A stretch of DNA of 64,000 nucleotides from a phage. This document shows, in pieces, positions 20,579 through 22,228 of the stretch (within the stretch, counting starts at the first letter, position 1; every line of letters starts with the position of its first letter). The translations under genes and the position numbers were made by a program. Location: the NCBI GenBank assembly GCA_014685065.1, contig GCA_014685065.1_3930.1; one strand, given 5' to 3'. The notes under the pieces are model-generated. The model did no database searches, was not told where the DNA came from, and saw only the letters and a list, made by a program, of their open reading frames with translations.

Positions 20579-20608
20579 GAGCAGCATAAACCAACGGGTA
20601 CTCACCAG

Positions 20609-20647
20609 CATCACTTAAGGGTCTTCTAAGAGGGTTTTTAAGTGATG
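20609..20647 (+). repeat. conserved 39-nt hairpin element, copy 1
   Basis: CATCACTTAAgggtcttctaagagggtttTTAAGTGATG, 10-bp stem; near-identical copy at 22001-22039. Confidence 0.6.
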
Positions 20648-20718
20648 TTTGGTGTGGTGCGGTGGTGTGGGGTGTAGTTTTGTGTTGTTAGGTGTTGTTA
20701 GGTGAGGTATGGGTGGAT
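20648..20718 (+). repeat. G/T-only low-complexity tract
   Basis: About 70 nt composed almost entirely of G and T (ggtgtggtgcggtggtgtggggtgt...). Confidence 0.6.
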
Positions 20719-20744
20719 GGTAGTAGCCACGTTAAAAATCTACC
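20719..20744 (+). other. hairpin GGTAG-16 nt-CTACC (covarying with 22111-22136)
   Basis: Second copy has GGCAG/CTGCC with the same loop start tagcc...aaaaat. Confidence 0.5.
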
Positions 20745-20820
20745 AAGTTTCTAAAGAGTCTTCTGTTGAGGGTTCTTTACAAACAACTTAACAATCAACT
20801 AAAGTGTGGAGCTAAATGCT

Positions 20821-21408
20821 ATGAAACTGTTAAATGTCAAAATCACTGGTACTCGTCCTTTCTTGAGCCATAACGATACGCTGTCAGACCCATTAAATCC
20901 TCTGACAAAATATCACAAGTCCCTGTCCAGTAAACGTAAAAAGACTGACGAAGACTATGCGCTCTTAGCAGAAAGCCAACTGGTAACTTCTTGTTACTAC
21001 GATGAGCAGCTAGGTTTTGTTATGAACGGTGAGATGATTGAGGCTTGTATCAAGTCTGGTGCAAAACTCAACAAACTTGGTAAGGTAATTGACCGAGCCA
21101 TTATGCTGACAGATGTAGTCTTCCCAATGACTATCAAGAACTGTCCAGCAAACCCACAAGAGCTTGCTAAGAATCCAGACTTTATCTATGCTAAGTCTGT
21201 TAAGATTGGTACAGCACGAGTTATGAGCTACCGTCCAATCTTCCGTGACTGGTCTGTAGAGTTCGGTTTGATGTTCGATGAAGAGCAAATCACCAAAGAG
21301 GAACTCTTGATGGTTCTGGAAAATGCTGGTAACCTTTGCGGTGTAGGTGATTGGCGTCCACGCTTTGGTCGTTTTTCTGTAGAAGTTATTTCAGAAGGTA
21401 ACGTTTAA
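20821..21408 (+). CDS. hypothetical protein
   Basis: Start set at ATG 20821 (RBS GTGGAG); about 195 aa. Confidence 0.5.
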
Positions 21409-21410
21409 TT

Positions 21411-21851
21411 ATGAATACAAAAGCATTAGCAGCAAAGTTTAGTTACGGTGACACTGTATCACATTCTGAGATGGACACCTTCTTAGGTATTGTGAAGCCA
21501 ACTTATCAAGGTGACATTGTTAAGTACGAAGATGAAATGAAGGCTTATGCGCTTACACGTCTAAACCGACTTGAAAAGTTTATTGAAAAACTTCTTAAAG
21601 AAGAGAAGATTTATCTGGTTGCTTCAATGGGTGTTGGTTATCGTGTGGTTGAACCTAAGCATCAAGCAACTATTGCAAAACGCAAAATGTCTGGTAAGAT
21701 TGGTCGTGCTTTAAAGCAAGCCACTCAAGCGATTGAGAATGTGAACACTATGGCACTTAGTCATCAAGAACGTTCACGACTGATTGAACAGCAAAATCAC
21801 TTAGCTGCTATGAAAGCTAATATTAACAAGCAACGCAGAAAACCTTTCTAA
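21411..21851 (+). CDS. hypothetical protein
   Basis: 146 aa ORF immediately downstream. Confidence 0.5.
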   Translation: MNTKALAAKFSYGDTVSHSEMDTFLGIVKPTYQGDIVKYEDEMKAYALTRLNRLEKFIEKLLKEEKIYLVASMGVGYRVVEPKHQATIAKRKMSGKIGRALKQATQAIENVNTMALSHQERSRLIEQQNHLAAMKANINKQRRKPF

Positions 21852-21862
21852 GTTGACTAGGT

Positions 21863-21887
21863 AGCCTCTTCGGAGGCTCCTTTTTAA
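21863..21887 (+). terminator. rho-independent terminator
   Basis: AGCCTC-ttcg-GAGGCT hairpin followed by TTTTT. Confidence 0.6.
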
Positions 21888-21904
21888 AAGGTCTTTAAAC
21901 AGGG

Positions 21905-21965
21905 TCTTTTAACAAGGCTTAGCTTGGTTAGGTATGGTAAGGTGGTGTTTGGTGTTGTAAGGTAT
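21905..21965 (+). repeat. G/T-only low-complexity tract
   Basis: gcttggttaggtatggtaaggtggtgtttggtgttgtaaggtatggg. Confidence 0.55.
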
Positions 21966-22000
21966 GGGTAGTTAATCGGAGCTACATAAAAATTCGATTA

Positions 22001-22039
22001 CATCACTTAAGAGTCTTTTAAGAGGGTTTTTAAGTGAGG
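22001..22039 (+). repeat. conserved 39-nt hairpin element, copy 2
   Basis: CATCACTTAAgagtcttttaagagggtttTTAAGTGAGG. Confidence 0.6.
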
Positions 22040-22107
22040 TGTGGCACGGTAATGTTAGGTAGGGTCAGGTCAGGTCAGGTGAGGTAAGGTAAGGTAATGT
22101 ATGGAAG
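22040..22107 (+). repeat. G/T-only low-complexity tract
   Basis: Contains (caggt)x3 and (aaggt)x2 repeats. Confidence 0.55.
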
Positions 22108-22110
22108 GAT

Positions 22111-22136
22111 GGCAGTAGCCTTATAAAAAATCTGCC
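22111..22136 (+). other. hairpin GGCAG-16 nt-CTGCC
   Basis: Compensatory double change relative to 20719-20744. Confidence 0.5.
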
Positions 22137-22228
22137 AAATAAGCTATAAAATCTGTTGACAAGTCAGGTGTTATAGCTTATTTTTATACTCAATGTAATA
22201 CAAAATTTAATATAACTTTGAGGTCATT

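Follow-up and report, generated by a model that had tools for sequence, protein, structure and literature searches.

We identify, with very little doubt, a type II VIPR (Viral Interference Programmable Repeat) locus of the SUSP1 clade in a 64,000-nucleotide stretch of phage DNA (NCBI GenBank assembly GCA_014685065.1, contig GCA_014685065.1_3930.1), referred to below as the window. The locus occupies positions 20551-22137 and comprises vipr, vap and three genes for trans-acting guide RNAs (vrRNAs), all three on the plus strand, one upstream of vipr-vap and two downstream (a 1+2 arrangement; Table 1). Each vrRNA gene is built in the same way, with a 5' stem-loop followed by 11-14 NN-GGY pentamers and a 3' pseudoknot tail. 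VIPR was first described in 2026 (bioRxiv 10.64898/2026.04.26.720920, 10.64898/2026.04.26.720927), as loci made up of vipr, a vap accessory gene, and vrRNAs with 9-16 YNNGG repeats and an invariant tail. In that description one Vipr protomer binds each repeat, sequestering GGY and presenting the NN dinucleotide; the dinucleotides read double-stranded DNA by pairing, with one skipped base per unit, to form an R-loop triplex that silences transcription, and the guides of the SUSP1 clade mostly target a satellite phage in Escherichia coli genomes (10.64898/2026.04.26.720920, 10.64898/2026.04.26.720927). The vrRNAs of SUSP1 itself are expressed as RNAs of ~100 nt, co-purify with Vipr, and silence transcription of their targets (10.64898/2026.04.26.720920). 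The sequence-level hallmarks of VIPR are all present in the window. Because the locus falls in this experimentally characterised clade, the feature was already known as of 2026, and the residual novelty is minor.

The protein encoded by vipr is identical at 190 of 195 residues to the 'SUSP1 Vipr protein' of Protein Data Bank (PDB) entry 36pp (E=8.6e-128, single-sequence search), and membership of the SUSP1 clade is defined by >90% identity to SUSP1 Vipr (10.64898/2026.04.26.720920, 10.64898/2026.04.26.720927). A search with a protein-family profile matched one solved structure, again 36pp (E=6.5e-81). Vipr is described as a small RAMP protein with an RRM core, a G-loop and a thumb (10.64898/2026.04.26.720920, 10.64898/2026.04.26.720927); our AlphaFold (AF2) model of the window protein has a pLDDT of 93.1, and its top Foldseek matches are Csm3/Cas7 RAMP chains of type III and type VII CRISPR complexes (E about 2e-5). 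The structure paper names 14 residues that hold GGY and the DNA strands (10.64898/2026.04.26.720927), and 13 of them are kept in the window protein (H17, K33, R39, E71, M72, K82, G87, K88, R138, C173, D177, W178 and R179); the fourteenth, T175 in the text of that paper, is V both here and in the PDB chain. The adjacent vap has no Pfam match and belongs to PHROG 5926, of unknown function; a DNA-binding fold is predicted for it. Its product is identical at 145 of 146 residues to that of contig L018, whose Vipr is identical to the PDB SUSP1 chain throughout (195/195) and whose vrRNAs are arranged 1+3, as reported for SUSP1. A possible homology between window vap and the second gene of a distant locus (L026) was not significant (BLASTP, 22% identity, E=3.3).

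Between and beside these genes, three period-5 arrays were found in the window, all on the plus strand (about 20632-20721, 21917-21976 and 22029-22113), compared with none in 20 shuffles. A first-pass annotation of this DNA had described the region as a leader module present in two copies, each with a 39-nt hairpin, a tract almost wholly of G and T, and a second hairpin. The duplication is real: an ungapped alignment of the two 138-nt segments (20609-20746 and 22001-22138) gives 72% identity, and the two 39-nt hairpins exist and are identical at 36 positions. What that count missed is a third module, with repeats at 21914-21968 and a tail at 21966-22000, which lies between the terminator at 21863-21885 and the second hairpin copy. 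The G/T-only composition holds for the vrRNA1 tract (91% G+T, with NN almost only G and T) but not for the vrRNA3 tract (67% G+T, 26% A), and the trait common to the tracts is instead the 5-nt GGY period. The two spacers, termed here intergenic regions 1 and 2 (IGR1 and IGR2), hold no open reading frame (ORF) of at least 40 amino acids, as expected from the earlier view that nothing codes here.

The arrays combine a fixed frame with a variable content. Across 56 unique arrays of relatives, G1 of the GGY triplet is conserved at 76%, G2 at 99% and the pyrimidine at 100% (90% T), and NN is near-random; array length is 9-17 units, mostly 11-16. Among the 20 close relatives compared (L001-L020), IGR1 measures 278-567 nt and IGR2 273-544 nt, in steps of about 130 nt, since the module is present in one to three copies per spacer, a count that varies among phages 95-99% identical. 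The arrays themselves cannot be aligned between phages with flanking genes 95-99% identical, and some are common to several phages; that of vrRNA1 recurs identically in phage nataliec (L001). Whole-unit slippage between guides that are otherwise nearly the same is visible at window positions 22061-22075, where three CAGGT units face four in IGR2 of L014, and two AAGGT units face one (IGR2 of L014 and L006 compared).

These patterns bear on the earlier interpretation of the modules as cis-acting 5' leaders that would use an RNA-binding protein or a G-quadruplex to regulate the operons at 20821 and 22229, which we now consider very improbable. The IGR1 module does sit downstream of a strong promoter (20551-20578) and upstream of the vipr start codon, in distant relatives the arrays separate a stop codon from the ribosome-binding site after it, and a side effect on vipr translation or mRNA stability may occur. 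The IGR2 modules, however, lie downstream of the terminator and precede the promoter of the next operon (22156-22184), and are thus upstream of that operon's transcription start rather than in its 5' untranslated region. Module copy number ranges from 1 to 3, and the NN positions are hypervariable and match a foreign element in trans, as described below. A G-quadruplex-like structure is likewise at odds with G1 being only 76% conserved against 100% for the pyrimidine: many units read TGT or AGT, and G-quartets are not conserved. Two related candidates, Shine-Dalgarno-like standby sites and two-tier G-quadruplexes, are unsupported by position-specific conservation. The idea of the repeat tract as a protein-binding platform, on the other hand, was right, with one Vipr protomer per pentamer in the SUSP1 system. 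Autoregulation by the adjacent protein, in the manner of TRAP or of the gp32 operator, is close in spirit, again with one protomer per pentamer, and was superseded by the PDB match to Vipr. Two A/C-rich tracts elsewhere (58648-58701 and 59244-59289), picked up by a composition scan and tried as minus-strand arrays, are inside plus-strand coding sequence and unrelated.

That the element acts as RNA, and that its structure is under selection, is supported by covariation in the 3' tail. We aligned 18 tail variants of ~35 nt without gaps, two of them satellite-borne, and a single H-type pseudoknot fits every one: stem 1 pairs columns 3-6 with 17-20, stem 2 pairs columns 8-13 with 30-35, and loop 3 is A-rich. 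Paired cells make up 93.9% of the total, compared with 76.8% in shuffles (0 of 500 as high) and at most 51% when partners are slid, and 8 of the 10 pairs show changes on both sides. Selection for structure had first been suggested by the difference between GGTAG/CTACC (20719-20723/20740-20744) and GGCAG/CTGCC (22111-22115/22132-22136). This compensatory change and its stem are confirmed, with the correction that the stem does not form a lone hairpin but is stem 2 of the pseudoknot. The vrRNA3 and vrRNA1 tails differ by three compensatory pairs, and the vrRNA2 tail keeps the pairing columns of the others with a wholly different stem 2 sequence. In the SUSP1 clade, too, the invariant tail folds into a pseudoknot (10.64898/2026.04.26.720920, 10.64898/2026.04.26.720927). 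A further kind of tail, type B (GGGTAGTTAGTCTCAGCTACATTAAAATGAGACTTACCTTTTT), occurs in L002-L020 and has no copy in the window; it can form an alternative long hairpin (GGTA..AGTCTC/GAGACT..TACC) followed by T5, which resembles an intrinsic terminator and competes with the pseudoknot.

The same structures argue against a DNA-level element, such as an iteron origin, an R-loop-prone G-rich non-template strand, or a packaging or recombination signal in a replication gene cluster. Its position between DNA ligase and nucleotide-metabolism genes, the strongly strand-asymmetric, G-rich tract downstream of a promoter, the detection of 10-bp register repeats, and a copy-number variation suggestive of recombination would all suit such an element. 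Stem-loops and pseudoknot nevertheless require G·U pairs and single-stranded folding, and the 5-nt period is the footprint of Vipr as seen by cryo-electron microscopy in a 97%-identical system (10.64898/2026.04.26.720927). GC skew tracks gene direction with no origin-like switch at the locus, and arrays co-occur with vipr in unrelated phages. We regard a DNA-level role as the least probable of the readings considered, close to negligible.

If the arrays are VIPR guides, their NN dinucleotides should read a target at one skipped base per unit. A BLAST search with IGR2 located an array resembling those of vrRNAs in E. coli 02E060. It lies within an element of ~10 kb that has serine recombinase genes at its borders and includes tape-measure, baseplate and HNH genes. 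Of 5,426 complete E. coli genomes, 532 have a match to a 3.7-kb piece of this satellite, and in 43 of these at least 80% of the query is covered. We slid 54 unique guides of at least nine units, from 21 related phages, over 13 diverse satellites, using the published cut-off of at least 80% NN match. With the skip-1 code, 31 of the 54 guides reached this cut-off, ten of them at 90% or more. None reached it on the same satellites with a skip of 0, 2 or 3, and none at any skip in 50 kb of flanking chromosome. The vrRNA2 guide matches 20 of 22 positions (91%) at skip 1, at a site in the spacer that separates the tape-measure gene of the satellite from its baseplate gene (L036 3943-3975, L037 3072-3104); in a unit-shuffle null on seven satellites, the observed value was 19/22 and the maximum of 200 shuffles 18/22. 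For vrRNA3, the best nine consecutive units match at 18 of 18 positions in a 324-nt satellite gene (L027 11774-11815). No self-target was found in the window, where the best self-matches (63-77%) do not exceed the shuffle null. The product of window positions 35012-35785 (minus strand) shares 72% identity with the baseplate protein of the satellite, and the product of 35809-38034 (minus strand) 29-58% with its tape-measure protein; the homology is consistent with a satellite that parasitises the tail of the window phage.

Some E. coli satellites carry a single vrRNA gene of their own and no vipr (L027 14924-15115, L029 10635-10760 and L030 10609-10700). The L027 gene comprises about 10 pentamers and a pseudoknot tail, with a sigma-70-like promoter (TTGATG-17-TATAAT) and an intrinsic terminator of its own, and the L027 and L030 tails show a further compensatory stem 2 variant, GTCG/CGAC. 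Such satellite-borne vrRNAs presumably use the Vipr of the helper phage.

Several points weigh against the VIPR assignment, or against parts of it. Both sources for the system (10.64898/2026.04.26.720920, 10.64898/2026.04.26.720927) are preprints, and expression and binding in the window phage are presumed by extension from SUSP1. Past the terminator at 21863-21885, we found no good sigma-70 promoter for vrRNA2 and vrRNA3. The whole vrRNA3 guide matches its satellite site at 22 of 28 positions (79%), just below the cut-off. Two extra AA units account for this guide matching less well than the shorter version in L008, and sibling variants reach 81-96% at the same site. Finally, vrRNA1 is without a convincing target: its full-length match to the satellites is at background, and its best nine-unit stretch, the one nearest the pseudoknot, matches 16 of 18 positions in a satellite gene (L029 9006-9047), a value reached by 2 of 100 shuffles.

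This last point raises the question of whether vrRNA1 is a decayed or non-targeting copy (a degenerate guide, decoy or assembly scaffold), leaving only the downstream vrRNAs as functional guides. It has no target at 80% or more in the 13 satellites, the window or viral contigs, and its NN content is all but confined to G and T; 23 of the 54 guides of relatives are likewise without a target in this small satellite sample. Against this reading, the GGY periodicity, tail and 5' stem-loop of vrRNA1 are all intact, the identical array is kept in L001, the nine-unit stretch does match a satellite gene, and 13 satellites are few against 532 E. coli genomes with matches to the 3.7-kb piece. We consider a non-targeting vrRNA1 unlikely, though far from negligible. 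Viral contigs gave no match to its exact 12-unit pattern, nor to one 10-unit pattern. A ten-unit exact match did appear in two marine T4-like, cyanophage- or pelagiphage-like contigs (L034 777-805, L035 11181-11209), in a 30-residue membrane ORF (...WFVAGGVLVYVV...) with the skipped base at the wobble position; given the mismatch in host and ecology, we judged it a coincidence, and the satellite's own small membrane ORF has no vrRNA1 match either. A target class outside the known satellite is a lesser possibility for this G/T-only guide.

An addition to the published picture is the conserved 5' stem-loop, which the text of neither VIPR preprint discusses. It exists in two versions. The first, shared by vrRNA1 and vrRNA3, is the 39-nt hairpin of the first-pass annotation; it does not fold as a 9-bp stem with a large loop, its stem being 17-20 bp long with 4-5 G·U pairs, and in vrRNA1 the first repeat unit adjoins its 3' arm or overlaps with it. 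Over 12 variants of this version, 97% of cells are paired, with one C-G to U-A double change. The second version, found at vrRNA2, occupies the equivalent place in modules that lack the first, has conserved G·U pairs of its own, and shares with it the inner core GUCUU...AGGGU; the 5' arm of the vrRNA2 copy overlaps the T-tract of the terminator, while the 3' arm, as in the first version, runs as far as into the initial pentamer. The G·U pairs imply a stem at the RNA level rather than the DNA level. Mature SUSP1 vrRNAs are ~100 nt long (10.64898/2026.04.26.720920), which corresponds roughly to repeats plus tail, so the 5' stem-loop is probably removed. We propose, tentatively and with more doubt than conviction, that it is an undescribed maturation signal of type II vrRNAs, in two interchangeable versions, both with stems of 16-20 bp and fixed G·U pairs; candidate functions include a site for host RNase III and a loading site for Vipr or Vap. 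By analogy, hammerhead ribozymes fill the proposed role in other VIPR types.

Other observations concern the same stem-loop. L009, L010, L013 (IGR2) and L017 (downstream spacer) have a ~26-nt insertion (AAATTATATTCGATAGAGTATCTCAT) in its loop and keep both arms. Weak matches to the GUCUU...AGGGU core, with three mismatches, occur at 52472-52493 and 53075-53096 on the minus strand and at 4025-4046 on the plus strand, with six in total compared with 0.23 expected. Two of them are within a cluster of 24 tRNA genes (49736-55224, minus strand), on the tRNA strand, one being 9 nt upstream of a tRNA. These matches may represent a common signal for small-RNA processing or expression, or chance. By eye, GGTCTTTTAACAA resembles a boxA element (a nut site would have boxA GCUCUUUAACAA and, after it, a boxB hairpin within a transcribed leader), but the motif is one arm of the conserved G·U stem, which explains its conservation without NusB/E, and the lead of a boxA/nut antitermination site was dropped. 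The same box was also rejected as a phage promoter, as it has no acceptable -10 element and only three weak matches elsewhere.

How the vrRNAs would be expressed can be outlined from the predicted signals. The promoter at 20551-20578, an 11/12 consensus match directly after the DNA ligase stop codon, is conserved in all 21 related loci. An inverted repeat (GGTGAGTA, 20569-20576; TACTCACC, 20600-20607), also kept in all relatives, overlaps its -10 box with the left arm; it may serve as an operator, or form a stem at the 5' end of the transcript. We propose that this promoter drives a transcript of vrRNA1, vipr and vap, and that the terminator after vap is partly read through, unless the downstream vrRNAs have unrecognised promoters. 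On this proposal vrRNA1 must be excised from a promoter-proximal transcript that runs into vipr, and the conserved 5' stem-loop sits at that spot; processing at or near it would release vrRNA1, and the Vipr filament and pseudoknot would then protect the mature RNA of ~100 nt. During infection, the phage would silence genes of a satellite that would otherwise parasitise it. The promoter at 22156-22184, downstream of the vrRNA genes, forms the 3' border of the locus and is annotated as a promoter in phage ASO1B.

The phage itself is a Felixounavirus. Of the 258 phage records that the 2.2 kb around the locus match at 90-99% identity, nearly all belong to FelixO1-like phages, with Escherichia, Salmonella, Shigella and Citrobacter as hosts, and the locus and its neighbours consist of ligase, vipr, vap, small ORFs, dihydrofolate reductase (DHFR) and thymidylate synthase genes. 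Beyond this group, five contigs (L022-L026) encode a Vipr homologue 37-40% identical and carry, next to its gene and on the coding strand, arrays of the form (NNGGT)n or (NNGGC)n, indicating that arrays travel with the protein. In L022, L023, L024/L025 and L026, the arrays directly follow a stop codon and directly precede a ribosome-binding site, with ends ..GG(T)TTTTTTAAC/TTTTTCAC; those of L023 are three NNGGC arrays with hairpins in between, one with a tRNA T-loop-like GGGTGCGAATCCC. L021 has a Vipr homologue and no array within the 5.5 kb examined. Rfam, a search of which the first-pass annotation had suggested, returned only tRNAs for the window at gathering score, nothing meaningful at E<=1 in 20500-22300, and nothing in L022, L023, L024 or L026.

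Table 1. Features of the VIPR locus and its borders, in window coordinates (S1 and S2, stems 1 and 2 of the pseudoknot).
Feature	Position	Strand	Description
IGR1	20544-20820		Non-coding; DNA ligase gene on one side, 195-aa ORF on the other
Predicted sigma-70-type promoter	20551-20578	+	TTGACA-16-TATACT
vrRNA1 5' stem-loop	20609-20647	+	17 bp, extendable to about 20 bp; 3-nt loop; 4-5 G·U pairs
vrRNA1 repeats	20644-20713	+	14 NN-GGY pentamers; NN = GA TT GT GC GG GG GT TT GT TA GT TA GA AT
vrRNA1 tail	20711-20745	+	H-type pseudoknot; S1 GTGG 20713-20716 / CCAC 20727-20730
vrRNA1 tail, S2		+	(T)GGTAG 20718-20723 / CTACC(A) 20740-20745; A-rich loop 3 (GTTAAAAAT)
vipr	20821-21408	+	195 aa; RAMP/Cas7-like fold
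vap (vipr-accessory protein)	21411-21851	+	146 aa; starts 2 nt after vipr
IGR2	21852-22228		Non-coding; 146-aa ORF on one side, next operon on the other
Intrinsic terminator after vap	21863-21885	+	AGCCTC-TTCG-GAGGCT + T5
vrRNA2 5' stem-loop	21879-21917	+	Second sequence version; 16 bp with G·U pairs; RNAalifold consensus of 19 variants
vrRNA2 repeats	21914-21968	+	11 pentamers; NN = AA TT TT TA AT AA GG TT GT AA AT
vrRNA2 tail	21966-22000	+	S1 GTAG 21968-21971 / CTAC 21982-21985; S2 TAATCG 21973-21978 / CGATTA 21995-22000
vrRNA3 5' stem-loop	22001-22039	+	36/39 identical to the vrRNA1 copy
vrRNA3 repeats	22036-22105	+	14 pentamers; NN = GA GT AC AA TA AG CA CA CA GA AA AA AA AT
vrRNA3 tail	22103-22137	+	S1 AAGG 22105-22108 / CCTT 22119-22122; S2 (T)GGCAG 22110-22115 / CTGCC(A) 22132-22137
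Predicted promoter, next operon	22156-22184	+	TTGACA-17-TATTTT

The window locus closely resembles that of SUSP1. Vipr is 97% and Vap 99% identical, the vrRNAs lie in the spacers flanking vipr-vap, and both systems share 11-14 YNNGG units, a 3' pseudoknot, skip-1 targets in the same kind of E. coli satellite, and a lack of self-targeting. They differ in vrRNA number and arrangement (1+2 versus 1+3) and in their guide sequences, one of which is G/T-only here. Like Class 1 CRISPR-Cas systems, VIPR uses a RAMP fold with a G-loop and thumb, places one protomer per fixed RNA step, flips bases periodically, and caps a variable guide with a conserved handle. Unlike them, it has a period of 5 with three sequestered bases rather than 6 with one, reads a non-contiguous guide, and is phage-encoded; at the window locus there are no CRISPR direct repeats or spacers, and no cas1, cas2 or other cas gene is among the neighbours. 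The trp leader of Bacillus carries 11 G/UAG triplets separated by 2-3-nt spacers, wraps around the ring-shaped TRAP protein, and acts in cis on attenuation. The vrRNAs may be compared with it in principle only, as a conserved triplet at a period of ~5 nt with variable spacers and one subunit per triplet; the protein folds are unrelated, and the TRAP spacers carry no information, whereas those of a vrRNA would be the code. As with the counter-measures of other helper phages against their satellites, the predicted target is an integrated element, here of ~10 kb, that encodes a serine recombinase and proteins homologous to the tape-measure and baseplate proteins of the helper, but the weapon is an RNA-guided silencer rather than a nuclease or a protein inhibitor.

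VIPR has been presented as RNA-guided DNA recognition with a non-contiguous code, and proposed as a relative or ancestor of CRISPR RAMP systems (10.64898/2026.04.26.720920, 10.64898/2026.04.26.720927). The window adds nothing categorically new to this picture; it provides an independent, purely computational replication on material that was not picked by the authors of VIPR, in which the GGY/NN statistics and the covariation of the tail pseudoknot, including that of satellite-borne tails, are recovered. If our proposal for the 5' stem-loop is true, this element would set the 5' end of each vrRNA and separate the vrRNAs from one another and from the vipr mRNA.

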